Below are positions 1,965 through 38,700 of a stretch of 40,124 bases of DNA, piece after piece; positions within the stretch are counted from its first letter, which is position 1; the number at the start of each line of letters is the position of its first letter. The DNA lies in NCBI GenBank assembly GCA_000320545.1, contig ADNK01001491.1:1-40124 (forward strand). Direction: 5' to 3'. Source of the DNA: Bigelowiella natans CCMP2755. Lineage: Eukaryota; Protista; Cercozoa. The notes under the pieces were generated by a model, which did not search any database, had not been told where the DNA came from, and saw only the letters and a program-made list of their open reading frames with translations. Both the position numbers and the translations under genes were made by a program.

Positions 1965-2930
1965 TCTCGATCTAGAGATAGGATGCATGCATCGATTTGC
2001 GAGTGCTGCTGGGTTCTGGGGTTTGTTGGGCACCTCTAGACCTGTGCCCAGACCAGTCGTTGCGGTTCAAATTTTGTCAAAGTTTTCGAAAAAAAATCAC
2101 GCAATTCGCCCAGCTAGCCAGGTGTGTTGTGGCCGATCTAGCGCTGTGATGGACATCCCAATCGGACTCACAACAAGTCCCTGTGCGCGTGCATATGTCA
2201 TTTGTTGATGCGTATATGCACAAGAAAGGCATGCGTGCACATTTTGCATCCATCTCCAGATCTAGCCATGCATGCGTGCGACCATGTCTTACTTTCTAGC
2301 TCTCTGCGACACGCGCTGAAGCTCAAAATCGCCTTGAAAAGCTCACGCACGCTTGCTCAAACACAAAGATTGTCACAGGTTTGGTGGGGGCTGTCTAGCT
2401 GTGTGGCGCGCGCACATTGACTTTGATGCTGGGTTGCGCTCGCTCGTCAAAGATGAGTGAATTTTCTGCGACAAAATGCATTGAGTGCCACCACAATGCG
2501 CAAATTGAACACGGCATGCGGAGTTCATGATTGTGCCCAAGAATGACGCATGTGGACACAAAGCAGTGCGTGTCGTTGTTTGGTGAACGTCGGGTTGATC
2601 ATTCTCACACATCATCACGACTATTCAAGACATTTCATCCAGTTCCAGGCATCCACGTCTACATGTCAAATGGAAAACATCAAACTGTATCAGATTTTGA
2701 ATCAACCCAATAGTGTTGAAGTGAATCTAGTTTTTCAAATCACAATGAAGGCAGTGCATTGTTGATCAAAATGAAACAATGCAGTAGTACCCAACTCACT
2801 GTCCGTAGGTTTGGCACTTTTTTCTCCGTGCATGCCATAATTAGAGCTTGACGATGGATCAGTGATGAGGCTATTCATGTGATTGAAGTGCACCGCTTTC
2901 ATGTGACCCTGCAACATTGTCGGAAATCAA
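1965..2930. other. TpA-depleted intergenic patch
   Basis: TG/CA-rich; many surviving TA sit in CTAG/TAG/CTA (tctagag, cctctaga, gctagcc, tctagcg, gtctagct). Confidence 0.7.
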
Positions 2931-2949
2931 AAGTGTACTTGGAAAGAAA

Positions 2950-4300
2950 CACGATGAACGTTATGGGTCTATAAGAGTAACTTGTTTCATCTACCTTCAA
3001 GTGAGGTTTCTGTCTGAAAGAGGCTAAACATAAATCTGCGTATCATGAAAAAGGTATTGTTGAATTCTAATAGATCGATGCGGCAACACCTTAAGAATCC
3101 TTAAAATTCCTACAAAATATTTTATATGCTCACCGCAAGCAAATGGCCTCGTTCCAGTGTGGGACCGCTGATGGCGCCTTAATCTTTTAACCATATGCAC
3201 AATGTAATGTTATCATTGATGTAAATCTTAGAGGATGGCTTGAAGCCTCTTTTCAGTCAGCTATGTACCTATACTTAGTCTTGAACGACTTTGTGCAACA
3301 GCTACATCTGTCACGATAAAATTAAATTGTATGAGCTGATGACCAAACTTTTGATTTTCACAAACTCACGCATGTCGGTTTTTCTCGAGTTCTCTTTTAG
3401 CAGAGCTGGTGCTGCAGTTTGTCGTTTTCAATGTTTCTGGATTTTGCGTATTCTCGGGACACTGAGACTGAGCCGTTCTATGTACACTGCAGAACCAATA
3501 CCAATCAGGACTATTCTTGCTTTTTGGAAGGAATGACTCACCTGAACTTCAAACCAGACATAGACAACGGAAGCGCAATGTGAAATGTATTCCCATTAAT
3601 CCAGACCCTGCACTGAGCGTCTGCCGGAGCTCTGAAATTTATACTTTGTAAATAAAACGACAGAGCGCAGGCTATCTACAGATTACCCCATGTTTTGAAA
3701 TGTCAGTTGTATTTCATTTATCGTGTTGACAGGCACAGGGAAGGCTCTGGGGCAAGTTTTTGCTGACGAGGGGGTCAGTTTTCTTTTCTTCCCACTCTTC
3801 GGAGAGTCGTCCTCCAGCTGCGCTGCAGAGACTGGTGCAGCGATGGCTTTTGGGCTAGCTGCTGCTAAGGCGATCATTTTCCGTTTGTTCCCGATCCTCT
3901 GGGAGTTGTTCGCCAGCTGTGCTGCAGAGTGTTTTCCCTTTTGGGGGGGGTTAGAAGTGCGGATCGTGGGAATGGATTTGATCTAGCTCCATCCACGGTT
4001 TTTTCTCTGTTTCTGCAATTCTGTTTGTCGTTTTACCGGAATTCGCATGCATTCGAGTAAGATGCAACAAAATGTTCCACTTGAACCAAGTAGATCATTG
4101 CGCACATATGTGGTACTGTACATCATGATGAAAAATTTCCTGCGCCATTTGAGGTAGTAACTCCTTCGTTTTTCAGCGATTCTATCGGTCTTAACCTAGG
4201 CGTTTTCGCCAGATTCCAGCCGATCTTATTTCGATAAGGGGTACCTTCTTTCTTCTGCGAATCGGCACGCTTATTATCACATGATCACCAGCTTCATTTG
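2950..4300 (-). CDS. Probable multi-exon gene, unknown product; boundaries approximate
   Basis: Minus-strand coding-like blocks (AAASPKAIAAPVSAAQLEDDSPKSGKKRKLTP with an NLS-like KKRK; VWINGNTFHIALPLSMSGLKF at ~3542-3607) flanked by plausible splice sites. No recognised domain. Confidence 0.4.
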
Positions 4301-4995
4301 CAGAGGAGCGACATAGCGATATCTGCTGATGCCGAAAGGAACTCCCCTTTTTTCTTTGCGACGCGTAAACAAAATTATGTAAAAAAATGAAGAGCTATAA
4401 GCTCTCACATAAATCCTAGGTAGAAAATCGTGTAAATCAGTATGTATTTTTGCGAAGCGGCAAGTGTAAAATTATGTCGCACATGATTCATCGCCAGTCA
4501 TTTTATTTGCCGACGGCAAAAAGAGTTATCTAGAGTCTGGGGCGCATTCAGGAGTAAGGAACGCATTCAGGAGTAAGAAACCGTTCTTGAGAACGTTGCT
4601 AAATAGCACAGTAGCCACATCGCTATATTTATCCGCGACAGCATTTTGGACTAATATTGGAGATAAACGGCTTGTGTTTTAGATGAAAACCAGCTTCGGT
4701 TTCAACAAAATGAGTATAAGTCGCAGCGAGATGTTTTCGCAAAAGTTCTTCAAAGTTCTTTCAACAACTACAGTCAGATTCCGCATTAGGCGACGCGTTG
4801 TGCCGAGGGTTTTTTGTTGCCTATCAACTACTTGTAGCCTGGTGACTTCAACATTGCCCTTTTAGGGTCAATCTGTCAACTTGCAAGGTTATGGAGGCAC
4901 CATTTGTCAACTAATGACAGCATTGACGGGTAGTAACAGGGATTGACGGGGAGTAACGGGTAAATGCCGGAAAGTAACGGGTAGTAATGGATGAA

Positions 4996-5491
4996 TATTC
5001 TAAATCAGTAGTGACAGTTATCTTGAGATTATATGTACACCTGTAAAATATCCGAAAATTAGAGGAAATGGTTGAACATTAGGGTTAGCACAAGCGCCGA
5101 TCGAAGCATCATTTGTAGGTATGTTTCCTATCCCCTAACCTAAGATCGATAATTGTATGAAAATGTGCAAGCCTATATTCTAAATCAGTGACAGTTATCT
5201 TGAGATTATGTGTACACTTGTAAAATATCCGAAAATTAGAGGAAATGGTTGAACATTAGGGTTAGCACAGGCGCCGATCGAAGCATCATTTGTAGGTATG
5301 TTCCCTATCCCCTAACCTAAGATCGATAATTGTATGAAAATGTGCAAGCCTATATTCTAAATAAGTAACAGTTATCTTGAGAGTATAAATACACCTGTAA
5401 AATATCCGAAAATTAGAGGAAATGGTTGAATATTAGGGTTAGTATTCTAAATCAGTAACAGTTATCTTGAGAGTATAAGTATAACTGTAAA
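4996..5491. repeat. Tandem repeat, ~177-180 bp unit (starts 4996, 5176, 5353 and partial 5443) carrying telomere-like motifs
   Basis: Near-identical units tattctaaatcag...gttatcttgag...aatatccgaaaattagaggaaatggttgaa..ttagggttag...cccctaacctaag. The third copy breaks right after TTAGGGTTAG. Confidence 0.92.
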
Positions 5492-5737: not shown

Positions 5738-5766
<29 letters not shown>

Positions 5767-6280: not shown

Positions 6281-7087
6281 GGTGAGGATCACGACTGACG
6301 GCTATGTATTCCTTGTTACTATATTACTAGCTCACGCAGCTCGTTTTCCCGCCGCCGCTCCAAGGCTAGAATGCGTCAGTAGTAGCAGTAGCAGCAGCGA
6401 CAGCAGTGATTTGGATTCGACGTCCTTGTTTTGCTGATGCTCTTTGTCTGACTGTCTGTCATTACATTGAATGTGCCCCACACGCCATTTGTCACAGCGT
6501 TGTTGTTGGTGCTGCTACTGCTACTACTTGGATCCGCAGCCGCTGCATCCTCTGCCGCCGCTCCTTCGCTTTCTTCCCTGGGTGGCCCAGGGGGGGGAGA
6601 GAACCCTCTGATTTCTCCAGGATCTTGTGCGTGATTGGGAGGAGGAGGAGAGGGTCAAAAATTTCAACACAACAAACATGGTGCAATTGTCCCTCTGCGC
6701 CGCGCTTGCGCCCGCAACACGTCGCGCAATGTCGGAACAATTGACGGAAAGTGTGAACCTTTGATGAACACCATTGAACATCAAACAATTGGCACCAGTG
6801 TCAATCCCCATTGACACTGAGGATGCAGGATCATCTGCACAATTGCCGGCGCCGTCGCCGGTGTGATTCCTGCCTGGTCTCAACAATTGCGAATGCCAGA
6901 ACTCCGTCTGAAACATCACCCGATTGGGCAACACCCTCTCGACGCTGTCTTGCCTCTCCCCACCTCGCACCGACACCTCCCCAGGGTCGCTGCTTGCTCT
7001 TCGTCCTCTTCGTGTCTCTGCCTCTGCTTCCTTTCGGCCTGCCGCCGTTCAGTTCAATTGCGGAGACGTGATTGCCGTTTGCCAACT

Positions 7088-7204
7088 GCAATCCCCTCCG
7101 TTCACTTCCCTCTCCATCGGTCTCCTGGACTCAATTTGACACGGAGGCAATCCCCTCCGTTCGCTTCCCTCTGTGTCGATTGAACGGAGGCAATCCCCTC
7201 CGTT
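7088..7204. repeat. Three copies of gcaatcccctccgtt, two forming hairpins
   Basis: acggagg-caatcc-cctccgt (7141-7160) and aacggagg-caatcc-cctccgtt (7183-7204), directly abutting the left Harbinger TIR. Confidence 0.75.
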
Positions 7205-7665
7205 TGATCCCCTCCACGCAAGTGCAAACTGACCAACCAACTGACCAACCACCTTCGACGTCACCTGGTTTGATTTGTTTCACTTTCGAAGCGCCTTTTT
7301 GTGAAGACTGACCAACCAAAGTTTGAAATGTGACCAGTTTGCAACTTCAAACCGACCAGTCGGAACTGACCAGCACTGACCAGTGTTGTCGTGTTGTTGT
7401 CTGGTGCAAAATCAGAAAAAATCCAAAAACAACACGATTTTTCTCGTTGTGTCACCTCACGCACATCGTGCTGATGTCAAACCGAACAACATGCGCACGA
7501 TGTTGGTCCAAAGTGAGCCAATTTGAACGTTTCGCTTCACGTTCACACACTTGGCAAACACGTTTGAATCACGATGTGAAACAGAATGAACCGAAATCAT
7601 CGTGATGCTTTTGTCAAGTTTTCGTGAGGGGGAATTGAAACTGTGGTGTCGTTTCAGTCGTTTCA

Positions 7666-8960
7666 ATGGCGCCCTCTTTTGATGCTCTTGTCAAATTGTC
7701 GGCTGCATCCTCTTTGAAACGCTGGCAACAGCGTGCCGATGGCATGCGGAGAAAGATGGCCGCAGCCGTGGCCGTCACAACCATCGTGAGCGTGCTGACG
7801 GGAAAGAAGAGGAACAGACACAGGAAACAAATGAACTTCCTGCAGCACCTGCGTTCGTTCTCACCAAGTGCATTCAGGCGCACGTGCAGGATGCCCCTGT
7901 GCGTGTTTCACGAGGTGCTGGCAAAGGTGAAGCCAGACTTGGAGAGCAAGCACCCAAGAAAGGCCAGGCAGGATGGTGTGGTCCTGCCTGACATGGCTCT
8001 TTCAATGACACTGCGTCACTTGGCAGGGGGGTCGTGTCTTGACATCATTCGCCTGCACGGTGTCAGCAAAAGCAATGTTTTGTGCTGTGAAATCACGGGT
8101 CATTGAGGCCCTCGTGAAACACCACTTTCCTCGTGAATTCGATTTCACGAGGATGAAAGAATGCGAGTCGTCCTTTGCTCGCGTGAGCACCTGTGGCGAC
8201 GAGATGAGGGGTTGCGTGGATGCTGTGGACGGCCTGGCGGTCCACGTGAAGCAACCCTCATTGAAGGAGGATCCGTGTCAGAAGCGTTGCTTCAACAGGA
8301 AGGGCTGCTTCGCGCTGAACCTCCAGGCCGTCTGCGATGGCCGACGGGTGTTCACGCATGCAAAGGTTGCGGGCCCTGGTTCGGTCAACGACAGCCTGGC
8401 TTGGACTTTGTGCTCGCTGTCTGATGAAGTTGGTTCGGGGAAGTTGGGGGGTCACTGGTTCGCCGGAGATGCTGCCCACGGCAACAGTGACGGGCTGCTT
8501 TGCCCCCATCCCGGGAGGGAGCTGCCTCCTTCCAAGGCCAACTTCAACTGCCACTCACTTGTCCCAAAAGCGGATGAACGCAGAGTGTGCCTTCGGCATG
8601 TTGGTCGGCCGTTTTGGGGTGCTGTGGGCACCCCTGAAGTGTTCTCTCGCGGAGGCCGTGAGAACAGTGTGCGCCTGCATTGGGCCACACAACGTCACAA
8701 CTGAATTGACGCATGGCCTTCCTGTGGATGCCGACCTTCCACCCACAGTTCGCCACGTGCGCATCATGGGGAGGATGAGGCAAGGGCAGCCGCTGCCAAG
8801 ACTCAAGGTGACTTGTCGTGCTCCAAAGCTGGACAAGTCTGGCAGGCCATCGAGCCTGCTCAACTCGATCAACTCGAGTGGGGGCCGAACGCAGAGGTCG
8901 TGACGATGACTGTGCAAAGCGGGACCGCCTCACTCGCAAGCTTCAGACTGCCATCGACAA
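7666..8960 (+). pseudogene. Harbinger/HARBI1-type DDE transposase (DDE_Tnp_4-like), two frameshifts, Tyr-less
   Basis: Motifs FRRTCRM, LRHLAGGSCLDI, GCVDAVDG, FNRKGCFALNLQAVCD, GPGSVNDS, GDAAH, FNCH/LSQKRMNAECAFGMLVGRFGVLW, HN. Frameshifts near 8070 and 8555. The D, D and E catalytic residues are retained. Confidence 0.9.
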
Positions 8961-10048
8961 CATGCAGGTCTTGTGTTTGTCGTTTCATGAATGCGCTGTC
9001 AGGTGTCACTTGCAATGAGAAGAAGAGAAAATGGGTCGGCCGCAGAGGCAGCAGGTGGGAGAGAGGAAAGGTTTTGATGACGATGGATGTCAATGGCACT
9101 TGGCACCAGTGCTAGCACTGAAACCACATGACCACTGGCAGTGTGATGGTGACACATCAACCCCCCCTTTGTTAGCAGTGCCCTTGTCATTCTCGCCATT
9201 GCTTTTTGTTTCTGTTCAGTTGTGATGTGCACACATGTGTGCATGCACACATGCACATGTGCACAACAAACTCATCATTTGCAATTTCCATTCTTGCAAT
9301 TTGGAAGATGCAACTTGTCAAAACTTGACAAAAGGTTTCAAAAGAAAAATTCATTGCATTTTCATTGTGCAGTGCAATGCTGTGTCATTTCATTGAAAAT
9401 GATGTAGTTGCCTAGCTGCTCTTTGTTGACATCTGCGAGTTTTCACACACACAGCAATGGCACACGCATTGCATGTCTGTCATTTTCCCCCCAATGTTGT
9501 TTGAGTTGCAACTGTTCCAGGTGAGGCCTCGCCCCCATCCCCGTGAGTGAAACAGCAGTGTGCTGATGAATGGACAGGTGGTGCATTTTCCATTTTCCCA
9601 TTTGCATTGCATTGCATGATCATTTCAATTTCAAACAACACGTGATGTGTTTTTTGCGAGCAACCTCATTTGGCAGTCTTCCATTTGAAACCTCTGCTTC
9701 CAATGATCTCAAAAAAAAACTGAAAGATTGGAATTGGAAGAACTTCGCAAGAACAACAATGCAGTGGTGTGTGTGTTTGCGTCCCTCTGTTGTGGTGGGG
9801 GACATGTGTCTACGTCCCTCCTCCAGGGATGTGATTTCATTGCCTCAAGAATGTCTTGTTTCTGTTCGCTACATTTGATCCCTTTCTCGATTCCTTTCAG
9901 TGCTTCATTCTGCTCTTCACAATCATTCAAAAGATTTCCGCTGCAATTGAGAACATCACACTGCAAAAGATTTTCGCTGTGATTAAGAACATTGCACTGC
10001 GCAGTTTTGTGATGATGAATTCAATGTTCCAAATGTCAAATTAAAAAT

Positions 10049-10120
10049 CAGCGAACACTGGTTTCGATCCAGTGTCCTCCTGGTTGTGGGCCAGGCACGC
10101 TACCTCTGCGCCACTTCGCT
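10049..10120 (-). tRNA. Initiator tRNA-Met-derived gene with mutated anticodon CAC (probable pseudogene)
   Basis: Minus strand AGCGAAGTGGCGCAGAGGTAGCGTGCCTGGCCCACAACCAGGAGGACACTGGATCGAAACCAGTGTTCGCTG then ATTTTT. Full cloverleaf with A1:U72, C33 and a GATCGAAA T-loop (A54/A60), typical of eukaryotic tRNAi-Met. Pol III T-run terminator follows. Confidence 0.88.
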
Positions 10121-10172
10121 ACGTCATTGTCCTTTCATGTGCCAATTTGCAAATTGCTGATCGGACAAATCA

Positions 10173-10201
10173 AGGTCTCACCCGGATTCGAACCGGGGTT
10201 G
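10173..10201 (-). pseudogene. 3' fragment of a tRNA, Gln-like
   Basis: Minus strand CAACCCCGGTTCGAATCCGGGTGAGACCT is a T-arm plus 3' acceptor strand ending in ACCT, as in eukaryotic tRNA-Gln. The 5' half is replaced by sequence related to the 101-bp repeat. Confidence 0.6.
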
Positions 10202-10579
10202 CATGTACGTGCATGACACGCATCGCGCACATGCACGTGTCACGAATGGTGCGAAATGACGGTCTTGTACATGAATTAGCTACTGCAATTGAAGTAACTA
10301 GATTGAACATGAATCATTGGTGCGCAGGACTTCGAGGATTAAAACCAAATCATCCGGAAGATGATGATTTCAACAACAGAACAGATGAGCGCTTAATGAC
10401 GATGAAACATCATGATTTTTGCTTTCAGCATCTGATCAACAAACATTTCGGTGCAAACAAGATTGTCAATGTTGAGTCCTAATTCGGACTGTTGACGGTC
10501 ATTTCATGTGTTCAAAAATGAATTGCAGCACGTGCACGTGTGTGCAAGCAGGAGACAAAGTGCACAGTGCACATGCAGT

Positions 10580-10860
10580 GCACGCAATGCACTCAAGTTG
10601 CAACGCACGTGCATTGCATCTGCACAGACGTGTGCACGATGCACACGTTGCATCACGCACATGCACGCGTCACGAATGGTGCACATATGCAATGCGTTCA
10701 AGTTGCAATGTGCATTCCATCTGCACAGACGTGTGCACGATGCACACGTTGCATCACGCACATGCACGCGTCACGAATGGTGCACACGTGCAATGCGTTA
10801 AAGTTGCAATGTGCATTGCATCTGCACAGACGTGTGCACGATGCACACGTTGCATCATGC
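10580..10860. repeat. Tandem repeat, 101-bp period, ~2.8 copies (related partial copy at ~10221-10252)
   Basis: tgcacagacgtgtgcacgatgcacacgttgcatca recurs at 10621, 10722 and 10823. Confidence 0.9.
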
Positions 10861-11124
10861 ATCTTCACAGCGTACTGCTCGAGGACGAGTGGAGATTGTC
10901 TACCATTTGTCAACAACGTCCCAACGAAAAATCTTTGAGGAATTTTGTGGAGAATGTTGCTGAATAGTTCCAGTGTGCGAGTAATTGATTTTCTCCATTG
11001 CAATCATCACCACTCTACCACAGTTTGCTTGACTACTACTACTATTGCTACAATGGAAAAATCATCAAATAGTTCTGCTAATCATTTGAAATGAAGATGT
11101 TAATAATGTCTAATCATTGGAACA

Positions 11125-12696
11125 TCAGGCAGCGTCATTGTGGCAGACGTTCGCCATCTCATGCAGCTTCCTTCGCATTGCAGCGAGTTCATTCTCAAAG
11201 TATTCCTTCATGTCGGATTTCACTAGTCCCTTGTCTAGCCTTTCCTGCAGCTCGAAGAACCTGTTCTCCATCAAGGTTTTGGTGCGAATGTTCGAACACA
11301 CGAGTTTGTTGTGTTCGATTTTGTCCACGATGTTTGGACGAAAGCTTCGCGACAGCACAGACTCCAAGTCTTCCGTCGTCATGTTTCGCAACCGCTTCCT
11401 GCTGCTCTTGCTGCTTTTTGTGACGGAGCTCACAACGCTGTCCCCGTCACTTCGATTGCAGTCCCCGAGCTCGACAACAACATCGCTTATGTTCGATGGC
11501 ATGGAGCTGTCGAACAACGCGGAGGCGATGTCCCCATTGGTTTTTCTCATGCCAATGTTCAAGTAATATTGCACGTAAGACCTCCTCCTCTCCCAGTCAG
11601 CTTCCATGTCGGAGCCAGGATCCTCATCCGGAGTCTCCTTCATATGAAGCACGTACGACTGGGGAGCCTTCCCCTTCTTCCAACAATAATCGAAGAAGTC
11701 AGGATCATTGTTTCCTGACTTCTCGTAGTTGTGCAATATTCGCGTACGAGTGGCACGCATCTCGTTGCGATATCTCTGCAGCTTGGCCACTGTCTGATGT
11801 CCAGTCCACTTTGCTGGATCAAACAGAAGTACCCCATTTGCATTTTGAAGGAGTGGATCGTTAGGGGCGTAATGTTCCGGCTTGAACGACGGATTGTTGT
11901 ACAAAGCGTGGACAGAACGCCAATAGCGATCAGTGGGACTAACTCCTTCAAAATCCTCCTTGTTCATCTTCCTCTCCGAAGCAGAATACAGCTCAAGGAG
12001 GCTCCCCTCAGTCCACACGCTGTTAGGGGAATGCTCAGCCATGTCTTCTAGGACCTCATTGGACAACCGTAGATTACTTGAGCATATTATGTGGACCAAC
12101 CGTGCGCTACAGCTGTCTGACCACCTTGCAGTGGCTTCGTTCTTGCCTGCAGTCGTTTGGAGCTTCAAGTCTACATCATCACCAATGTGATCTGTTCTCC
12201 TGCTTGAATTGCTCTTCATCACTTTACCATTGACATATTTGATGGCCAAATTCAACCGATACTCCTTGCTGGTTCCTTTCGATCAATCAGGCACATTGTT
12301 TTCCTTCAGCCATTTCTTTAAGTCTATCCCACTCATCGCACGCAGTTTGCCCACTATATATTCATCTATTTCATCCGTGCCACCTTCAGAAACGTGGGAA
12401 CGCTCACTTACTGACGTCATTGAATCGTCAATGGATCCAAAGGTTGGTGTGGGACTCACAAAATTTTCAACGGAGACACCAGAGGCACACATTGATGGTT
12501 TCACAGTTTCCTTCACATCAGCGCTCGATACGTGATCCACCACATCGCGCACCTTTTCTGTGGTGATGACAGACGTGCATGGGGCTAAAGACAGGGTTTT
12601 TTTGGACTCAACGGCCAAGGTATGGCCTGCAACACCGTGCGTTGGGGGGGGGTCCAGAACCGTAACGTGAGTGGCATCCATCTTTTTATTTTCCAA
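11125..12696 (-). pseudogene. Harbinger second ORF (Myb/SANT-like DNA-binding protein) with one in-frame TGA at 12283-12285
   Basis: ORFs 12283-12696 and 11125-12255 are in the same frame. RWSDSCSARLVHII...YWRSVHALYNN...KLQRYRNEMR...NYEKSGNNDPDFFDYC resembles Harbinger-associated Myb/SANT-like proteins; C-terminal coiled coil; lies inside the TIRs. Confidence 0.65.
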
Positions 12697-13259
12697 TATT
12701 TTCGGTCAACATGATGGATTGATACCCAACAAATATCTACACACCGCAGAAATCCACTAGTCGAGATTCGAGATTGACGTCGATTGCGATGGGCATGTTT
12801 CCAATCAATGGACCGCAACAACATCGATGATATATCAACATATTTTGGTCAAAATTTGAAGTCAATTCAAATATTTTCATAACGAAATTGGTCAGATTGG
12901 TTGGTCATCAGTCAGTTTTGTATTTGCGTGGAACGAGCAAAAATCCATGAAAATCAACATCCAAAATCACCAAAAAAAAACCAACGCAGATTGGTTGGTC
13001 GGTTGGTCAGTTTGTATTTGCGTGGAACGGGTCTTATTAAATAGGCAGTAATACGTAAGTTACGTGACTTTAAGGGCGTAAGTTACCATTCCAAGGTATA
13101 TCTTAAGATATCTTAAATTGAATGGTCATGTCGCATTCTAAGAATGCTGGGGATTTTGCTGTCGAAAGAGCACACTTTTGGTGCTTTCTTCACAGAAACC
13201 TCGACCGCCACTGATCCCCCATTTAGTCACGTCGTCACTTCAAATGACGATGGGATAAG

Positions 13260-17020: not shown

Positions 17021-17089
17021 CACAAAAAATAGGAACTGACGAAACACGAAGCGACAGGAAGGAACACAATTCTACTCGCTGAGCAGACT

Positions 17090-22560: not shown

Positions 22561-22684
22561 TGCATCGCACCGTTTTGGCCGCTGCCGCTACCAATCCACA
22601 AAAAATAACGAGAAGCAGCATACTATGTACGCCAAAGACATGTTCGACACTCTTATACACACACACACACACACAAATACAAAT

Positions 22685-22737
<53 letters not shown>

Positions 22738-22829
22738 GTGTGTGCGTGTGTGTGTATTCGTGTATTTGCTGCGCATTTTACACGTATTGCATGAAACAAG
22801 TATTCGTTAGGACCCACTACTATTTTTTT

Positions 22830-24224: not shown

Positions 24225-24550
24225 TGTTGCGCGTAAGGTGTTCACAGGCCGAGGCGCTACGTGCACAAGTAGGCAGGGGGGGGGAAAGGCACGTTTGCTT
24301 CCTTTTGAAGAGTTGTGTTTATTTTTATTAAAGATTATATTTTTATTAAATCGTGCACTGCGTAATCATTCGCGAAGCTTTCGCGAATGCCGCCGCACGT
24401 GGGGCAGCACACTTCCGGTGTGCTGCCATGAGTCCCGCCGGAACCCACGTGCCTATGCTGTATTAATATCTACGTTATCTATATTCTATATCCGCGACAA
24501 CCCCTTTGTTGTCGCACGTGACTTGTGCCCGCGTAGTGGTACGCGCTACA
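24225..24550 (-). repeat. 3' LTR
   Basis: Direct repeat of 29615-29940; terminal inverted repeat tgttgcgcgta / tacgcgctaca (10 of 11 match). Confidence 0.97.
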
Positions 24551-24558
24551 CCTCCCCC
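24551..24558 (-). promoter_or_regulatory. Polypurine tract
   Basis: Minus-strand GGGGGAGG immediately before the 3' LTR; further (GGAA)n purines upstream. Confidence 0.8.
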
Positions 24559-24601
24559 AAGTCACGTTGCTCCTTCCTTCCTTCCTTATTCCCTTAGACC
24601 T

Positions 24602-27600
24602 TCATCGCTTTCGGAACTTCACCAACCACCAGGTAATAGATTCCTCTCTAACCTTATCTCCTTTGTCGCTTACCCAGAACTCACCTTCGTCCTTAGGTTC
24701 GTGTCCATACCAGCCCTCTGCATCAAGGTCCCCCAGGACCTTATACCAGTGCTCAAAGGGTAAGTCGGGAACAGCTAGGTAGAGTAGCTGATATTTTCCG
24801 TCCTTTATTTTCATAGCTACCCTCTCCATATTTCGTAATCCAGGGTAGCCTAGATAGACAATCTTCATGCGCCAATCGTCGTTCACCCTGACCTTATTGT
24901 TTCCATATTCCACATCGAACTTAGGTCGGGGTCCTAAACAAGGCATTGCTCGCTCCCACACAGTAGGGTTTACTTTAACATCCTCTAGGAGCTTCTCACC
25001 GATATCATAATTCTTTAGGTGACTGATGTGGCGCAAGGTGACCCTGTTCCCATCATAGATGTAGTACTGCTTCCTCCCCTTCCTCTCGGTAACCTTTGCA
25101 ACGCCACCCCAGAAGGGGTCTTGTTTATTTCTCGATCTCAGATTTACCTTGGCCCTAACATACTGTCCTTCCTTTAGAACTCGGCCATCGTACGGGACCT
25201 TCTCGTCTTCGCTCTCGGTATCGTCGTCGTTGTCGTCGCCTTCTTCCCTCTCCTTATCCTTGATACCTCCCCCAGACGTGAAGGTGTCGTTTACTAACCC
25301 TTGTATCTTGTCTGGTGTGGTGCTATTTATCCTGCTTAGGTTGGCCAAGGTGCGGTGGAGTCGCTCTACCTTGGAGTTGGACTGGGCATAGTATACAGGT
25401 GAGGCATCAATATTAGGGTGTGGTAGCTGTAGAAGAGAGGTCTCATTATCCACATGTAACTTCTTTGGTATCTTGTTTATGCTAACTTCATCAGGGATAG
25501 CCTGGAGCTCAGACTCCCAGGTACGGTAGCAGTTAGTAAGCCTCTGCTTATATAAGCCTTTGTTCTTCTTAGCAACGTTGACCTTGATAATCTTTTTAAC
25601 CCAGCACTTTCCAGTGGCCACATCAACGAAGGTAAGGTAGTGATAGCCATCGTACTTATAAACATCAATTTGCACGATATCTAAGAAGTTCCTTGCTTTG
25701 ATTTTCTTAGATGCACGGCTCTTGCTGGACTCCTTGGTGGCGACGCCTGCCGCCTTCAAGCTGGAGCACCTGCAGCCACGCAGGTATGTCCTTATCTCTT
25801 TTAGCTTGTAGGGCCAGTAGTAATGGTAGAGTAGAGCAGTGATATGGTTTTCTCCTACGTGTGCAGGTCCATGGGCGGTAAAGAGAAGGGCTCCCCTGGT
25901 CCGCCGTGGCACGTAGGTACGCCTAACATTATTAGTGTATACATATATCCTATCACTAAGTACCTCATGCTTGTGTTTGTATTTATCCAGGTGTTCTTGA
26001 AGGTGCTGGAGCTCCTCTGGCTCAGGCAGGAAGTCGCCGTCCTCGAAGGTAATCGCGTTAACCATAGGGGTGACCTGGGTAGGGACTTTCTTTTCGAACA
26101 GCCTGCTGAAATAGTCAGCAAGCTGCTTGTCTCCTGGTGCGTAGACCACTGTCCTCTTGTCCCTAAACTCTTCCGTGTCCGCCCTCATAGCTGCATACTC
26201 ATCGTTAGGCGCTTCGAGCTTGCGGTCGATGCCTAGGAGGGGCTTGTGGTCAGTCATTAAGGTGAAGCTGGGCACCGACAGCAGGTAGTGTCTTAGTTTC
26301 CTCTGCGCCTCAGTCATGGCTTTATACTCTCCTTTTGTAGGGCTGTACTTGGCCTCAGCTGCTGTGCAGGCCCTGCCCCACACCCGTATGATCTGCTGGT
26401 CTTGGGTAAGTACAGCAGCCATACCTAGCTTAGACCAGTCTGTCCATAGGGTAGCTGGTCTAGTAGTGTCTAGCTTAGCATTCAATAGGGTGTTGCTGCA
26501 TAACTTTATTAGGTTATCGAAGTGGGCATCAAGGCCAGCCTTGGCCCACACCTTAGCGAAGCTGAGGCCTACAGAGTTCTCCTTCCGGTAAGCAGTAGTA
26601 AAAGCAGCTGCAGTCCTAGCGTAGGTAGGGGAGAACCTACGTAGTATCCAAGCTGCAGTCTGCAAGAATGACTTTAACTCCTTTGCATTCTTAGGTTTAG
26701 GGGCTTGCTGTAGTGCTGCTACTTTCTCGGGGTTTGGGGTGATGCGGCCTTGCTCCAGGTAATATCCACACCACTTGATTCTTGTAGCTAGGAATGTACA
26801 CTTCTGCAGTCTAATAGTAAAACCGAAGTGTGCAAACCTAATAAATATATTTTCCAGGAGGAAGATCTGAGCGACGACTGTGTTGGTACATATTATGTCA
26901 TCATCCACATACACAAACACAAACACCCACAACACAGACGCCATCCCATCATGTGTGTATGCCCTGTAGTTCTGACTACTGAACGCATCCCCTGATATGC
27001 TTAGGCCGTAAGGGAATACGACGAAGTGCCACTTCCTGTGCCTGCTGGAGAACGCGGTAATGGGGCGGGAGGTTTTGTGGATGGGTGTCTGCATGTATGA
27101 TTCATTTTTATCTAGGGAAGAGTAGTATTTGTATCCTATGACGTGTTCAATAACGTCATCTATCCTTGGTGTAGGTGTCTGGATCCTCTTTATTACTCGG
27201 TTGTGGCGGATGAAGTTGTGCGCCAGGCGGAAGAAAGGGTAAGTAGGTTTCTTAGCTAGCACATGTCTCACGTTCCATGGTGAGTTGCTTGGCTCTATCT
27301 TCCCTTCCTTTGCCCATTCATTGATCTGCCACTCTATCTTTTCCCAGTCCGCTTCCGGTCGCCTATGTTCTGGGTCATTGATGATGCACTCTTCGTATCC
27401 CTTCTTTAGCTCGATCTTTACTGGGGTAAGCTTGCTGGAGGGCTTCGTCGTCGGCTTGGTGATGTCAGAGTACTTCTCGTTTAATATTTTATTAATGTAC
27501 TTTTTGCCTTTGTCGATATCCCAATCATCAGCTGGGGGGGTCTTGTCCAGTAGCTCCGTTATCTGTCGGATGGTCTTGCCGGGGTTCTTCTTCCGTAGCT

Positions 27601-29575
27601 CGGTAGGTGTAGGTAGCTTGTTGTCCGCTAGGTCCATAAACTCTAACGCATTAACGCTTGACTCAGAGGTCCACTCGTCAAGCCGTATCATGTTCTGGCT
27701 GATGGTCCTGCCTGACTTCTTTGGCAACTTAGCAAAGTATATCTTGTGATTGTAGAATGATATGATCCCCCCTAATTTTTCTAGGGCATCCTGTCCGAGG
27801 AGTAGTTCCATGGATAAAGTCATGGCTACTCGGGTCTTGATTTGGGTCTCCGCGTCGCTGCCAGGTATCTGTAGCTTTAGCATTAGCTCACCGACGGTCT
27901 TCATGGAAGAGCTTCCGTCTGCTTGAGCATATTTACGTTCTTTCTTAGTCACTTGATCCAATAGTCCTAACCTTCTTACTGTGCTTAGGCTTATGAAGGA
28001 CTTCGGCATGCTGCCACTATCCCAAAGGGCAGGTAGTTTCTTGTAGTCTCCGTAGCTGTCTTTAACTTTAACCTTGGTCATAGCAACTTTGATAGTCCTG
28101 TTAGCGTCTTCGTCATTAATGTTGCATACTCCTAAGTTCTTTATGTCGTCTAGGGTCATGGGCTTGTCTTGGTCCTGCGTTGCTGGTACTGCTGTCTTCG
28201 TCGGCGCCTGCTTAAGGTGATCTAATATTCCGTTTATCTGCTGCTGTATAGCATTGATACTGTTCTGCTTTTTGTTCTTATATTTATTGTTCTTCCCGTT
28301 GTTGCTGCCTTGCCATTTGCTGTTGTTATATCCTTGTCCTCTGCCTTTCTTTCTCTTTAACTTCTCGTAGTGTTCGTTGAGCTGCCTGATCGTCATCCTG
28401 GGTCGTCCTTCTTTCCTGTCTCTGCAGTCTTTAGCGGTGTGTTTCCCTTTACGTGAGCAGTATCCGCAACGTCGGTTACCTTCCCTGTCCTTGTACCAGT
28501 CTCGCTGCGGCTTAATAGCGTTAATGTTTCCTATGCCAGGTACCTTAGGGCTGGTAAACTTGCGGTCCTGCTCCTGCTCGCGTAGGGATATAGCCTGCAC
28601 TGCTGCCTCCATCGTGGTGTAGCCTTTCTCCGTAACGTAAGTGGATTCCTTTATCTTTAACTTGAACTCTTCAAACCTTGCCTGATCATCACCTGTGTTG
28701 TAATTAAAATCATGTAGTTCGTCGATCATATCCTGGAAGCGCGTGGCAAAGTCTCTAACAGGTTCTCTCTCATGCTGCATCATTGCTCTGTATTTTCTAA
28801 TAGCCTGGGGTAGGGAGTTAGCATCCTGTTCATTTACAAAAGCCTTCATTATCGCCTCAACGTCTCGTAGCCCACTAACTGTAGTGTGTATTTTCTCTAG
28901 CTGCCTGATCCGGGTCCTGCCTGTCTCGTAAAGGTCCATGGCTTGCTTTATTATAGCTAGCCATTTGAGCTTGTCGTTTTCGGTGGGGTTAGGGGTAAAG
29001 TCGCAGAGTATACTCCTAGCGTTCTTCCACCACCTCCTTGCCTCACCTCTTTTCCCGTTGTATTTCGTTATCATAACCGGTGCTGTTTTAACAGACATGA
29101 ACTGGGTGTTCCGCTGTACCGGCTGCTGCTGCTTGACGGTGCTCTGGGTCGTCCCCCGCGAGGCGCCCAGACCCCCGTCGTTCCTAAACAAAGCTGCCCA
29201 CTCTGGAGGTAAGTCTGCTTCGTAATCCATGATGTCCTGCATGATAGCTGCCCAAACATCATGTGTCTGATACTTGTATTCTATCGATACTTTCAGTTTG
29301 GCGTAGTTGCTCGCCCTGGGTCGCAAGGCTCGTAATGCCATTACGACCTTCTTGCTTTCGGCGGCCACGTCCTCGTCGTCCGCCTCGTAGAAGTTCTCCA
29401 GTGCCTCTGCTGCTGCATCTGCTTTCTTAATCCCGGGTGCTGGTCCCGGCGGTGCCTGTGGAGGTGTTCCTCCTCCTTCCTTAGCGTCCGTATCGCCCTT
29501 CCTTTCCTGTTTCTGCTCGTGCCCTTGCACGGCCTGCGAGCCAAAGTCCTGCTGTTCTTCTAGCTGCTGTGACAT
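24602..29575 (-). CDS. Gag-Pol polyprotein, 1657 aa, with C-terminal Dam-like extension
   Basis: Zn knuckle CGYCSRKGKHTAKDC; protease LWDSGS; RT SSLD...PYGL...YVDD; RNase H TDWS...E...TDHKPL...ADYFSR; integrase H-x3-H...CRC, QID...VDNE...SNSKVER; GPY/F-like module; ~134-aa extra domain. Confidence 0.97.
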   Translation of the reverse strand: MSQQLEEQQDFGSQAVQGHEQKQERKGDTDAKEGGGTPPQAPPGPAPGIKKADAAAEALENFYEADDEDVAAESKKVVMALRALRPRASNYAKLKVSIEYKYQTHDVWAAIMQDIMDYEADLPPEWAALFRNDGGLGASRGTTQSTVKQQQPVQRNTQFMSVKTAPVMITKYNGKRGEARRWWKNARSILCDFTPNPTENDKLKWLAIIKQAMDLYETGRTRIRQLEKIHTTVSGLRDVEAIMKAFVNEQDANSLPQAIRKYRAMMQHEREPVRDFATRFQDMIDELHDFNYNTGDDQARFEEFKLKIKESTYVTEKGYTTMEAAVQAISLREQEQDRKFTSPKVPGIGNINAIKPQRDWYKDREGNRRCGYCSRKGKHTAKDCRDRKEGRPRMTIRQLNEHYEKLKRKKGRGQGYNNSKWQGSNNGKNNKYKNKKQNSINAIQQQINGILDHLKQAPTKTAVPATQDQDKPMTLDDIKNLGVCNINDEDANRTIKVAMTKVKVKDSYGDYKKLPALWDSGSMPKSFISLSTVRRLGLLDQVTKKERKYAQADGSSSMKTVGELMLKLQIPGSDAETQIKTRVAMTLSMELLLGQDALEKLGGIISFYNHKIYFAKLPKKSGRTISQNMIRLDEWTSESSVNALEFMDLADNKLPTPTELRKKNPGKTIRQITELLDKTPPADDWDIDKGKKYINKILNEKYSDITKPTTKPSSKLTPVKIELKKGYEECIINDPEHRRPEADWEKIEWQINEWAKEGKIEPSNSPWNVRHVLAKKPTYPFFRLAHNFIRHNRVIKRIQTPTPRIDDVIEHVIGYKYYSSLDKNESYMQTPIHKTSRPITAFSSRHRKWHFVVFPYGLSISGDAFSSQNYRAYTHDGMASVLWVFVFVYVDDDIICTNTVVAQIFLLENIFIRFAHFGFTIRLQKCTFLATRIKWCGYYLEQGRITPNPEKVAALQQAPKPKNAKELKSFLQTAAWILRRFSPTYARTAAAFTTAYRKENSVGLSFAKVWAKAGLDAHFDNLIKLCSNTLLNAKLDTTRPATLWTDWSKLGMAAVLTQDQQIIRVWGRACTAAEAKYSPTKGEYKAMTEAQRKLRHYLLSVPSFTLMTDHKPLLGIDRKLEAPNDEYAAMRADTEEFRDKRTVVYAPGDKQLADYFSRLFEKKVPTQVTPMVNAITFEDGDFLPEPEELQHLQEHLDKYKHKHEVLSDRIYVYTNNVRRTYVPRRTRGALLFTAHGPAHVGENHITALLYHYYWPYKLKEIRTYLRGCRCSSLKAAGVATKESSKSRASKKIKARNFLDIVQIDVYKYDGYHYLTFVDVATGKCWVKKIIKVNVAKKNKGLYKQRLTNCYRTWESELQAIPDEVSINKIPKKLHVDNETSLLQLPHPNIDASPVYYAQSNSKVERLHRTLANLSRINSTTPDKIQGLVNDTFTSGGGIKDKEREEGDDNDDDTESEDEKVPYDGRVLKEGQYVRAKVNLRSRNKQDPFWGGVAKVTERKGRKQYYIYDGNRVTLRHISHLKNYDIGEKLLEDVKVNPTVWERAMPCLGPRPKFDVEYGNNKVRVNDDWRMKIVYLGYPGLRNMERVAMKIKDGKYQLLYLAVPDLPFEHWYKVLGDLDAEGWYGHEPKDEGEFWVSDKGDKVREESITWWLVKFRKR

Positions 29576-29591
29576 TGTTAGTCAAATCGTT

Positions 29592-29609
29592 TCCCGTGTG
29601 TGGAAGCCA
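29592..29609 (-). promoter_or_regulatory. Primer-binding site
   Basis: Minus-strand TGGCTTCCACACACGGGA, starting 5 nt after the 5' LTR. The primer tRNA was not identified (loosely Glu/Asp-like). Confidence 0.65.
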
Positions 29610-29614
29610 AAGGT

Positions 29615-29940
29615 TGTTGCGCGTAAGGTGTTCACAGGCCGAGGCGCTACGTGCACAAGTAGGCAGGGGGGGGGAAAGGCACGTTTGCTTCCTTTTGAAG
29701 AGTTGTGTTTATTTTTATTAAAGATTATATTTTTATTAAATCGTGCACTGCGTAATCATTCGCGAAGCTTTCGCGAATGCCGCCGCACGTGGGGCAGCAC
29801 ACTTCCGGTGTGCTGCCATGAGTCCCGCCGGAACCCACGTGCCTATGCTGTATTAATATCTACGTTATCTATATTCTATATCCGCGACAACCCCTTTGTT
29901 GTCGCACGTGACTTGTGCCCGCGTAGTGGTACGCGCTACA
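29615..29940 (-). repeat. 5' LTR
   Basis: Matches 24225-24550; followed on the minus strand by the PBS and the gag ATG. Confidence 0.97.
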
Positions 29941-29944
29941 CCCT

Positions 29945-30850
29945 TGGGCCCTTAGGCAGTGACTGTTAGCAGCAGTGGTGACAGTCTAGCAGTGTGGTAG
30001 CAGTGGCAGCGATGACTGCACATCCACCTACCGGTGTTTGAGCTGAACTGACGAAAGGCTAATCACTCTCGGCTTGCTAGCTTGGGATTGAACCTCTGAG
30101 AGATCAATCACACGATCACACTTGTTGTTCCAGTGCCATGTTGGAATCCCAATTACCAGACTGAGACACCCAATCATTGCATGCGTGTGCTTATCCAACC
30201 TCAATGTGATGCAAAAAAGAACAAGAAAGCACACAACAAGTCAGACTTGCGTCTTCCTGCGACATGGCACATCATTCACGTGCGTTTGTGGCTCACGTTG
30301 AACTCGCTAACTCGTCTAGACGTCTAGACGTCTAGATCTAGAGAATGAGATGTGTGGACGTGTGGACCACATGATACAAGAATGGAGATGATTTATTTGC
30401 TCCTGCGCTACAATGATGTTGCATGCTGCTTTTGTCAACTCCATTCTGCCAGTCTAGCATTCTGTGAACGTGCATCAAAAATTCAAAATTGCTTTCAAGT
30501 TCAACACACAGACACCAAATGTGTGCAAATGTGTCACACAATGTGCTCACTGCCCTGGCATTTCGAGATTATTCTTGCGTCGATCAAATCTAGAAGTGAA
30601 CAAGTGATTTCCCCACATGCACGCATGCTCTGTCATTGCATCATGCTGGCATCATGCCATGACACTGCGTTGTGATGAGTTAACGTGGTAGCAGATTAAC
30701 ATCAGTGGGCTTCCTGTTATTGTGTCTAGCAATGCTGACTTTAATGCGTCTACCTGCAACTCTGAACCCATTCATGCATTGAACCGCAAATTCAGCTGCC
30801 TGCAACATAGGAGAGTACGCTTTAGGTGTCAAAACGAAATGTGCACATTC
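29945..30850. other. TpA-depleted patch flanking the LTR element
   Basis: TG/CA-rich, survivors mostly TAG/CTAG (gtctagacgtctagacgtctagatctag at ~30314-30341). Confidence 0.75.
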
Positions 30851-34533: not shown

Positions 34534-34539
34534 ATGCTA

Positions 34540-35010
34540 GTTCAATGATCAATCGCCGTCGCTGAAAATGAATGTTTTCCCATGCACACTACTAGACTAG
34601 TAGCATGGCCTGCAGTGCATTTTCATACATGTTCTTCGCATTGTATGTGCCTCTCAATTGCAAATACGTTGTGCATGTTGCATGTGTTGTCTCCATTTTG
34701 CGTCTGTAGTGTGCAGCTGCACTTTCACATGAGACCGATGCAGTGGATAAAATCATGTTCTCACTCAGAGCTAGAGAGGCACAACTAGACAACATAAGTG
34801 CGGCTGATGTTTTCAATAATTATTCTAATGTCTAGATGTGGCTCTGCCGGCCGCAGCATCAATTTGTGCTTGTTGTTTTTCAGCCAATGTGTAGATGTGT
34901 CTGAGCACGTTTGTGCGCACGTTTGCACTAGCGCTAGTGCTTGCACACGACGTGGACATTTCAGCATGAAAAATGTGCTGGTCACTGACACACGCAGAAA
35001 AGTTAAATCA
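34540..35010. other. TpA-depleted intergenic patch
   Basis: TG/CA-rich with actagactagtag, gctag, tctag and ctagcgctag survivors. Confidence 0.7.
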
Positions 35011-35173
35011 TTGTGCATAGAAGACACGTATTGGTTTAGCGTGGTTCATTGGTCCTATCTATTTAGATTGCAGAAACAAACAGATACCTAGGGATACAAC
35101 ATAATGAGCACTGTAGACGCTGCATACCATATCATAGTGTCCGAGACAATCACCCATGTGCAGCATTTAGTGA

Positions 35174-35973: not shown

Positions 35974-36453
35974 AGTTCATTGATTTTTGCTCAGAAGCGT
36001 TGACTTACCTGGGACCAATTCGAATCCCTAGTGTTTGGCAGCTTTGGTGTTCTAATTGTACACAGCTGTTTGCCGCGCACGCCGTACGCAAGAATCGAAA
36101 GCAATGTTGCTGATGGCGAGGACGGGGTGGCACCTCGGGCCTCTTCCAGATATGTGTAAATTTATTGGCGCAAGGGGAAAATATATATACCGAAAACATC
36201 CAAATCTGTTTGCAAGTATCTTTCCGAACGAAAGGGAGTTTTGCCTTCTATATCGCACCTGGGAAGAGATTTCGCGAAACAAATATGCCCTGAAAACTTC
36301 TAAGTAGAGTATCAATATCGAGCGAACTTTTGTGAGTCGAACCCCAGGCCATTTCCACCTATTTGTAAGGGGGAAATCGATTTTTGTCGCATTTTCCCCC
36401 GGACCATCGGATCGTGGTGCTCACCACAAATTCCATCGACGACCGCTCCTTCG

Positions 36454-37202: not shown

Positions 37203-37250
<48 letters not shown>

Positions 37251-38137
37251 CCAAAATCACGCTCTGACCTACAAATGAATTCCAAAAGGAGGTCTCACGA
37301 GTACTGAAACCGGGGGGACGAATGTCGATCGCGTGCACGACTCTGCGTCAGCCATTGCCGTCACCCGATACGCACGGCCCATGGCCGGCGTGTATGGAGG
37401 TGTTTCTCCCCCTCCCCTCCGTGAATGCAGTAGTGCAGGCAGCTGGCTTCAGCTCGGCGTTGGTTGACCTTTCGGATGCATCGATGGACAAATGGGACAT
37501 GTCAGATGACGAGCTTGTAACGGAGATCGCTCGGGATGACTCCGGCGAGGAATTCGCGTGCTCGCATGCCAGGAAAGCTGCAGAGCGTAGGGCAAGGGCA
37601 AAGTTAGATGCCGCTGTCGCTGCCCGGGAGGAGGCGGAGGCTAGACTACTGGCCGCGCAAGGGGAAGGTCTGCAGCCCGCTGATGCCGCAGAGAGGCAAG
37701 AAAACCTCGGACTCATACACTGGGGAGATCCTGAATACCAGCATCTGGAGCAATACGACATGAATTCGCTATGTGCTCGTGTTGTTATCTATGCGGAGAA
37801 GCAGCAGCAGCACCAGCAGCAGCAACAAACACCTCAGACGACGTCGAACCTGTCCTCGCCGTCCCTGCAGCCTTCCTTCAAATCCGCCTCAGCCTCCGCA
37901 GCTGTGGACGAATCAAGCTCATTTTCATATCTTCAAGATAACCTTGCGACCTGTGGTAGTAGCAGTCGCCGCGACCAAGGCACAAACTCACATCTCCTCG
38001 GGTTCGGCGCAGCTTTCTGCTGCGCCGCAGCTGCAGCATCGATTTCAAGCAGGAGAAGAAGACTTCGCGCTGCTGCATCGAGCAAGGTATACGGTCGCTT
38101 TGTCACGGCGTTCTCTCGCCTCTTCCGGAAATTGTAG
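36454..38137 (+). CDS. ArsM/AS3MT-like class I SAM-dependent methyltransferase; exons 36454-36688, 36857-37125, 37289-38137
   Basis: QGTGNPHKLAKIKAGETVLDLGSGLGADAFLAA...VFGLD...GDMEHIPLPDSSVDCVISN...LVPNK..AFQEVSRVLKPGGR...WPAC. Confidence 0.85.
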
Positions 38138-38139
38138 GC

Positions 38140-38700
38140 ATGTATCTATATGTACGAAACAATCGAGACAGGACCCCGCCTTGCGCAGCAGTACGTGTCT
38201 GCTTCGGTCTTTTTAGCATGCAATGTGTACACATACGAAGATCTACTTAACACAGCACTAGAGCACGCTAACAATTATTCAAACGCCTAGGTACTGCGAC
38301 GCTGTCGTGTGCATACATGCTCGCATCTAGCTAGGCATGCATCGAATATCTACAACTCAGAGCCCGAGCAATCTGTAAAACTAGTGTACACTTTGTTGAC
38401 TACAAAAGCGTCGTCGTCGTACGTGCAAGAACCAGTGCTTGCTGTATTCAATGTCGCCTCGCTTAAGGGCCACACTGGCACCGTGAATACTATCGCTTTT
38501 GTCATAAAATTATTCGGTATTGTTACAACGATGGCGCATTTGCGCAACGCGCGCGGGTGTGTGCATGACGCGACCGATCTTAAGCGTCGAACCTCATGCT
38601 AATAATGCATGATTGGATGATTGATCGGAATGTTTGCAACAGCACTAGGCCCCTCTGCCTTCATTTACATGACATGAGCCACCAATCTAGAAATGCGCGC
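38140..38700. other. Weakly TpA-depleted intergenic patch
   Basis: Several CTAG and TG/CA runs; incomplete depletion. Confidence 0.4.

Follow-up and report, generated by a model that had tools for sequence, protein, structure and literature searches.

Gene ends and TpA loss in the window

The subject of this analysis is the DNA downstream of genes in one 40-kb window of Bigelowiella natans CCMP2755 (contig ADNK01001491.1, positions 1 to 40,124; hereafter the window), on which all statistics were calculated. The 3' flanks of the window are mostly poor in the dinucleotide TpA, and they carry a 4-bp direct duplication around the tetranucleotide CTAG that is very probably the excision scar of a cut-and-paste transposable element (hereafter the scar). 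The flanks, the spacers used for comparison, and two transposable elements that served as internal controls are as follows; o/e denotes the observed/expected ratio.

1964..3023: 3' flank C1, between thiolase (+) and an unassigned gene (-); TpA o/e 0.38, CpA+TpG 1.57
17021..18148: 3' flank C2, between a kinase (+, stop approximate) and H2B (-); TpA o/e 0.52, CpA+TpG 1.62
21671..22829: 3' flank C3, between DUSP (+) and uL11 (-); weak TpA loss (0.83)
29943..30679: 3' flank T4, of an RRM-like minus-strand gene, in tandem arrangement and adjoining the Gypsy long terminal repeat (LTR); TpA o/e 0.38, CpA+TpG 1.76
34534..35050: 3' flank C5, between gelsolin (+) and an unassigned gene (-); TpA o/e 0.60, CpA+TpG 1.74
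38138..38700: 3' flank C6, on the 3' side of a methyltransferase gene; TpA o/e 1.0
18515..18940: divergent spacer between H2B and DUSP; TpA at background, no scars
23785..24223: 5' spacer of uL11; TpA share at background, no scars
35980..36432: divergent spacer between an unassigned gene and the methyltransferase; TpA share at background, no scars
6525..13035: PIF/Harbinger-like region, the positive control; DDE_Tnp_4 transposase (+, ~7741-8900) and a second open reading frame (ORF) (-, 11125-12705)
7213-7255 and 12983-13026: PIF end-like inverted repeat
24225..29940 (-): intact Gypsy LTR retrotransposon, the negative control; identical LTRs, 4-bp duplication CCCT, 1659-amino-acid ORF, TpA o/e 1.13, no scars

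A preliminary description of the window had listed six TpA-depleted patches, one for each flank in the above order (P1 to P6), and had placed all of them between convergent genes except P4. For the present analysis, the TpA share was defined as TA/(TA+TG+CA) and calculated on the same patch coordinates with microsatellites masked, the background of 0.322 being taken from the 5' spacers and introns. Depletion was clear in P1 (1965-2930, share 0.105, p 5e-13), P2 (17090-17800, 0.128, p 3e-9), P4 (29945-30850, 0.135, p 8e-10) and P5 (34540-35010, 0.164, p 9e-5), and weak in P3 (21800-22560, 0.237, p 9e-3), whereas P6 (38140-38700) was not depleted (0.302, p 0.36; TpA o/e 1.00). The three upstream or divergent spacers that were said to keep their TA indeed do so, with shares of 0.47, 0.30 and 0.29. 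The earlier observation is, in short, real and partly misdescribed.

Exon and intron boundaries were placed manually, with translations and splice motifs as guides, except for two introns of the gene beside P4, which were taken from contig pieces. The exons of the thiolase, kinase, DUSP and uL11 genes translate as expected, and Pfam matches were obtained for H2B, uL11, gelsolin and the methyltransferase (+); the gelsolin gene (33198-34533) is 100% identical to jgi Bigna1/39589, and the methyltransferase next to it has a database model that carries the name Bigelowiella natans. P2 and P3 lie between convergent genes as described. For P1 and P5, a minus-strand partner is plausible, judging by reading frames and splice motifs alone, and P6 is 3' of the methyltransferase, as indicated by a database protein ending at the stop at 38137, while its convergent label found no support. 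P4 was correctly placed 3' of a minus-strand gene with a stop at 30680, the translation of which we take to be RRM-like, and the arrangement there is tandem. Convergent read-through is not a requirement for depletion, the tandem P4 being among the most depleted patches and the convergent P3 barely touched.

For the compositional comparison, the six 3' flanks were taken from stop to stop and five 5' spacers from start to start. TpA o/e did not separate the 3' flanks (0.38-1.0) from the 5' spacers (0.55-0.95; Mann-Whitney p=0.33) or from introns (p=0.39). The sum of CpA and TpG did: CpA+TpG o/e was 1.30-1.76 in the 3' flanks versus 0.92-1.21 in the 5' spacers, all six lying above all five (p=0.004; p=0.026 against introns), so that a compositional class limited to 3' flanks stands as previously proposed. 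All six were also poor in CC/GG (o/e 0.40-0.69, versus 1.06 and 0.98 in controls). Deamination of CpG was rejected as the source of CpA and TpG, the pooled CpG o/e of the 3' flanks being 0.90 and not differing from that of 5' spacers (p=0.18) or introns (p=0.33). The coding exons of the window are TpA-poor too (o/e 0.59), without the CpA+TpG excess (1.07 versus 1.56). It is to be noted that a 312-bp run without TA (33105-33417) crosses the gelsolin start and first exon, an exception to the earlier statement that promoters and exons are spared, which coding bias may explain.

The signature itself has a precedent in the same species, since Mettrop et al. (bioRxiv 10.64898/2026.01.13.699255) reported a roughly 1000-fold TpA to TpG/CpA hypermutation in two integrated viral regions of B. 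natans, observed that DDE and reverse-transcriptase domains are overrepresented among TpA-poor genes, and put forward an ADAT2-like deaminase, adenine deamination being a proposal there. The species, the TpA>TpG/CpA signature and the TpA-poor DDE-transposase genes (PIF in the window) are shared with that preprint; the scale differs, its viral inserts measuring 25-186 kb and its clusters comprising at least three 1-kb windows, whereas the patches are 0.5-1 kb of host 3' flank. By its thresholds (TpA o/e <=0.43, CpA+TpG >=1.52), two of the six flanks qualify unmasked and four with CTAG masked, C3 and C6 falling outside. The words CTAG, footprint, flank and downstream never occur in its main text, which contains no analysis of gene orientation. 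Neither the scars nor an orientation-linked TpA loss is described in that main text or was found by full-text literature searches, the scope of which excluded subscription journals and Repbase; host methylation in the lineage is likewise absent from passages of 10.1101/2025.11.19.688996 and PMC12695648.

The PIF region, although absent from the earlier list, holds the deepest depletion in the window, with no TA across 6525-9113. When its transposase was compared with homolog P0121 (6 of the 18 alignment rows being dropped as out-of-frame or duplicate), 11 of 12 tyrosines aligned to His or Cys, one to Phe and none to Tyr, a pattern which shows that the TpA>TpG/CpA process has acted in the window. 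The right half of the region is partly hit (TpA o/e 0.36-0.45), and the four depleted flanks match PIF 8900-11124 over ten dinucleotides. Change of TpA to both TpG and CpA, as expected of action on both strands, is documented by the tyrosine changes in PIF, and in the flanks by composition, mutated scar cores and one polarised nested scar. As to foreign origin, PIF fits, the flanks look like host DNA with scars, and the intact Gypsy is spared. Overall, the mutator is one already known, met in new surroundings and linked to a type of scar that apparently has no earlier description.

A 4-bp duplication around CTAG

Alignment of the CTAG sites revealed a wider symmetric pattern, namely a 4-bp direct duplication on either side of CTAG, 12 letters in all. 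The duplication was exact at 24 of the 54 CTAG in the six 3' flanks and at none of the 73 elsewhere in the window; at least three of the four positions matched at 37 of the 54, while 6 of the 73 others matched at three. Permutation of left and right words gave a mean of 1.1 and a maximum of 6 exact matches in 5000 rounds. Duplications of 3, 5, 6 or 7 bp were each found at 0/54 flank sites and of 2 bp at 2/54, and among 26 short cores tested, CTAG alone showed the pattern. No exact scar occurred in the introns (5,873 bp, 10 CTAG), the 5' spacers (3,384 bp, 7 CTAG), PIF, Gypsy or the remaining 12.7 kb. CTAG itself is also concentrated in the flanks (54 sites within 5,101 bp, against 16 within 9,257 bp; p 1e-12). 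In the order C1, C2, C3, T4, C5, C6 the exact scars number 3, 9, 4, 3, 4 and 1, located as follows.

C1: exact scars with CTAG at 2036, 2114 and 2395; three 3-of-4 sites; mutated cores CTGG (2016) and CCAG (2256)
C2: exact scars at 17345, 17383, 17416, 17533, 17576, 17584, 17600, 17700 and 17739; four 3-of-4 sites
C3: exact scars at 22276, 22450, 22501 and 22553
T4: exact scars at 29986, 30077 and 30324; four 3-of-4 sites; nested scar at 30442-30461
C5: exact scars at 34592, 34771, 34785 and 34832; one 3-of-4 site
C6: exact scar at 38258; one 3-of-4 site; doubled core at 38327

The duplicated word starts with A or C and ends with G or T, usually with C or G just outside, giving the consensus S-[M H D K]-S in nucleotide ambiguity letters. 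The target is symmetric: when the 24 sites were read on both strands, 43 of the 48 readings had A/C as the first letter of the word and 38 had C/G as the flanking base, a bias that the 73 other CTAG lack. Several sites are tandem or nested (17576/17584; 22272-22280; 30316-30332; 2250-2269; 30442-30461), and the earliest scar-like site in C1 lies 8 bp past the thiolase stop. Since a fixed-length direct duplication, a symmetric consensus and a constant core together make up the design of a transposon footprint, the sites are very probably excision scars of a cut-and-paste element. The preliminary description, in stating that no transposable element is recognisable in the patches, had overlooked them. 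That introns and promoters are free of scars could be due to targeting, or to insertions there having been selected against as long as the element was resident.

Several other origins of the pattern were considered and rejected. CTAG is not simply a word spared by the mutator, because equilibrium hypermutation simulations yielded 0.6-3.2 CTAG/kb, even under full protection, against 10.6 observed, and the partly mutated half of PIF has no CTAG excess. A single repeat family behind the patches was likewise dismissed: the flanks share 23 12-mers, compared with 6.0 +/- 2.9 in 6-mer-preserving shuffles, and only 3 remain once the CTAG cores are masked. An assembly or cloning artefact is contradicted by a run guessed to be RNA that matches 29914-30801 letter for letter, six scar or near-scar sites included. 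The nucleomorph telomere word, which contains CTAG, does not fit, G following CTAG in just 6 of 108 half-sites. Two longer cores (17656, 30066), taken as clues to the element ends, were mutually discordant and near chance.

Known transposon groups did not account for the scars either. PIF/Harbinger elements duplicate a 3-bp TWA target, and an adjacent 3-bp duplication was found at 0/54 sites. The hairpin footprint of hAT-type elements, in which the core is an inverted copy of the flank, does not agree with the constant core and with exact inverted flanks at only 2/54, nor a Tc1/mariner origin, with its TA duplication, with the variable 4-mer words, the CATG, CAG and CTG cores between YR steps being at or slightly above controls. 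In Sleeping Beauty, the transposase cuts inside the element ends and the donor break is end-joined (PMC520745), and P element donor junctions keep footprints of terminal residues (PMC2895639). The scars resemble both in that the target duplication flanks a short core from the element ends, and differ in having a variable 4-mer and the core CTAG, where Sleeping Beauty has TA and a 3-nt core and the P junctions have a longer duplication. A 4-bp target duplication is shared with Ginger1 (PMC2836005), which duplicates CCGG/CCGT and has ends TGTNR, and with Sola2 (PMC3627910), which duplicates AT-rich AWWT, whereas the scars have M-H-D-K words and implied CT...AG ends; CCGG, CCGT, ACGG and AWWT occur in 0/24 exact words. 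The scars point to a transposon with ends unlike any 4-bp-duplication group checked.

Scars, TpA loss and their possible connection

The TpA loss is centred on the scars. In bins of increasing distance from a scar, from 0-25 bp up to 800-1500 bp, the non-CTAG TpA share was 0.09, 0.11, 0.14, 0.19, 0.24, 0.30 and 0.29, i.e., the loss is strongest beside the scars and fades across 200-400 bp, with a share of 0.29-0.30 past 400 bp. All six flanks had a lower share at up to 100 bp from a scar, and the two flanks poorest in scars (3.5-3.6/kb) are the two least TpA-depleted. Scar cores have themselves been altered, as CCAG/CTGG cores with a duplication were found at 4 of 30 sites in the flanks (2 of them exact) versus 1 of 237 outside, and the nested scar at 30445-30456 polarises both TA>TG and TA>CA. 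The half-contexts CTA and TAG keep more TpA than others in the depleted flanks (34/230 versus 42/669, p=2e-4), as they do in PIF, in the partly mutated half of which CTAG survives at 7/29 and other contexts at 52/747 (p=0.004). As to whether CT[A] or T[A]G is the protecting strand context, the evidence is mixed: the four C-preceded Tyr codons of the PIF transposase have all become CAC, but the nested scar shows CTA>CTG.

The preferred explanation of these observations is a model in which the element tended to land in the 3' flanks, and the hypermutation directed against elements residing there spilled over into the surrounding flank. The element would duplicate 4 bp (S-[M H D K]-S) upon insertion, and its ends would begin with CT, CTA or CTAG, the non-transferred strand being cut inside the ends; end joining would then leave CTAG between the two copies, i.e., an 8-bp gain per visit. 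Insertions would be aimed at 3' flanks or tolerated there, and each residence would draw the mutator, leaking over about 200-400 bp. The CTAG cores may have survived through their late formation and because the CTA/TAG context would be a poorer substrate. Leakage as such is known from fungi, where gradients of repeat-induced point mutation (RIP) extend into single-copy DNA in Leptosphaeria and Neurospora (PMC2973834). There, as would be the case in B. natans, a defence mutator leaves a gradient in single-copy DNA beside its target; in B. natans, however, the direction is opposite (A:T>G:C at TpA), there is no sign of repeat pairing, and the inferred targets are gone. Fungal RIP itself, which causes C:G>T:A in paired repeats, was rejected for the window on account of that direction and of the identical, unmutated LTRs.

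A number of results weigh against this model. Inside the flanks, the gradient is of borderline significance (circular-shift p=0.061), and scar density and TpA o/e are not significantly correlated across the six (Spearman -0.49, p=0.33). The middle dinucleotide of the exact duplications is TG or CA in 7/24 and TA in only 1/24, identical between both copies, which implies that much of the TpA loss is older than the visible scars. TpA is intact directly past the right end of PIF, without leakage, and the intact Gypsy carries no such mutations, which means that residence is not by itself sufficient to trigger the mutator. The CC/GG o/e of 0.59 and GC o/e of 1.39 exceed what the simulations produced (0.70-0.85 and about 1.0, respectively), in the two barely depleted flanks too, for which the model offers no explanation. 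Lastly, no element that has CT...AG ends and duplicates 4 bp is present in the window, and no filled/empty pair was seen. Because of the borderline gradient, the early TG/CA words, the lack of a leak at the PIF end, the spared Gypsy and the unexplained CC/GG and GC values, we regard the case for leakage as evenly balanced.

The strongest competing explanation, which we consider possible and clearly less probable than leakage, is a shared compartment, which extends the idea of the preliminary description: a chromatin or RNA state of terminators (read-through, double-stranded RNA, a lack of protective marks) would draw the mutator and separately attract or tolerate the transposon, the scars being passengers. 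It would account for the uniformity of the flanks, all six of which exceed all five 5' spacers in CpA+TpG and are CC/GG-poor, and for target words that were already rich in TG/CA when inserted into. The same profile recurs, with scarcely any CTAG (3 in 2,225 bp), in the region between the convergent genes of PIF itself, and the main target in the preprint (10.64898/2026.01.13.699255), as its main text describes it, is single-copy and silent. A state common to terminators, however, sits poorly with the lack of depletion in P6, the slight depletion in the convergent P3 and the strong one in the tandem P4; moreover, TpA loss follows distance to scars more than distance to the spacer edges, for which the binned shares were 0.18, 0.14, 0.15 and 0.11.

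It is unlikely that the patches are decayed old transposons or other foreign DNA that were hypermutated as such and into which later elements jumped. Their composition is like that of the PIF interior, and two local similarities were detected, one of 55 bp linking P2 to P3 (z 4.8) and a weaker one linking P1 to P4 (z 4.4; 30 shuffles each, among 120 pairs). Against such bodies, the shared 12-mers all but vanish on masking of the CTAG cores (from 23 to 3), no ORF or end repeat was found in the patches, and the first scar-like site of C1 is only 8 bp from the thiolase stop. Topoisomerase II type enzymes make a 4-nt staggered break. It is similarly improbable that such breaks in supercoiled termination zones, filled and joined with fixed CT/AG, produced the scars over a native TpA-poverty of 3' untranslated regions: the duplication length of 4, the restriction to 3' ends and the TpA-poor coding exons would agree, but there is no source for a constant palindromic core, the exons lack the CpA+TpG excess, and the mutated cores and polarised nested scar attest to real TA>TG/CA change.

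Returning to leakage from resident elements, if it holds, a mutator directed at invaders also reshapes host 3' regions. Repeat pairing alone was earlier thought insufficient to explain the targeting, and this is sustained by the multi-copy Gypsy, which has identical LTRs and keeps a TpA o/e of 1.13, whereas the idea that the patches have no link to transposons gave way, as they are likely scar fields. A bolder and more doubtful extension is that a B. natans DNA transposon not described before, with a 4-bp M-H-D-K duplication and CT...AG ends, actively targets termination zones, where its 8-bp scars would number in the tens of thousands, the spill of the TpA mutator rewriting gene ends genome-wide. 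If true, the scars would date and map the action of a genome-defence deaminase on ordinary gene ends. The duplicated words and nested scars provide internal before/after pairs, so that no outgroup is needed to read off direction, context preference and timing. The preprint (10.64898/2026.01.13.699255) leaves the target choice of the mutator open in its main text, and a scar that can be found by regular expression beside TpA loss makes the question testable on a public genome.

Transcripts, control elements and minor observations

Contig coverage was examined over 24560-32770, which among the six patches includes P4, and the run kinds were guessed (X4 as DNA; X15, X17 and X18 as RNA), none being on record as RNA. 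One X15 contig spans 29914-30801 and two X17 contigs span 30093-30270 and 30356-30554, all without differing letters. P4 is thus present in presumed RNA runs, although DNA carry-over is possible and depth could not be ranked; the earlier label of the patches as untranscribed is in any case not established. No P4 variants were listed in the contig sets of the three presumed RNA runs, an amount of sequence too small for counting, and the presumed DNA run has no cover over most of 30040-32770, which says nothing on copy number. The contig ends near 30646-30671 do not coincide and do not fix the poly(A) site.

Further copies of the Gypsy element are revealed by diverged internal pieces and by contigs whose loose ends fall at the LTR ends, and the lack of mutation in this multi-copy element implies that repetition is not enough for mutation. 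The diverged pieces, from the presumed DNA run, fall in 27567-29015 (64 differences in 477 nt, 59 in 482 and 29 in 284) and are possibly hypermutated copies. Gypsy has many GT..AG joints on the plus strand, antisense to gag-pol; among 15 listed of 277 joints, 14 occur in all three presumed RNA runs and one in two, and none in the presumed DNA run. With run kinds guessed, these joints would mean that a multi-copy retrotransposon, itself unmutated, gives rise to an antisense transcript that is spliced. When more host DNA was sought via the LTR end, one spliced contig was found in metagenome_contigs and none in viral_contigs; the metagenome contig, L001, has the same spliced antisense form.

In the PIF region, mutation is graded along 7200-13035, being complete over the transposase and partial (o/e 0.45) over the second ORF, with long open frames. 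To the left of the end-like repeat, about 670 bp (6525-7200) are without TA, following a plus-strand intron and a strong acceptor at 6620, and may represent either host exon and intron DNA reached by leakage or a piece of the element that went unrecognised. A tRNA called Val(CAC) lies inside the hypermutated region at 10048-10121 (-), with a second tRNA-like fragment near 10175-10205. Its A1:U72 pair and GAUCGAAA T-loop are marks of initiator Met, and this may originally have been an initiator tRNA, with TpA>CpA having turned its CAU anticodon into CAC. Within a 101-bp tandem repeat of the PIF interior (10584-10911), two copies differ at one site as TA versus CG, i.e., a double change at a single TpA. 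Outside the element, a 177-bp tandem repeat at 4995-5530 (about 3 copies, 94-97%) is TA-rich and unmutated, with a TTAGGG word in each unit. No homolog was found for a candidate exon at 39762-39941. Two divergent spacers have in common a 63-bp inverted copy (32932-32993 and 36152-36214; 84% identical, z 23), either a promoter module or a small repeat.

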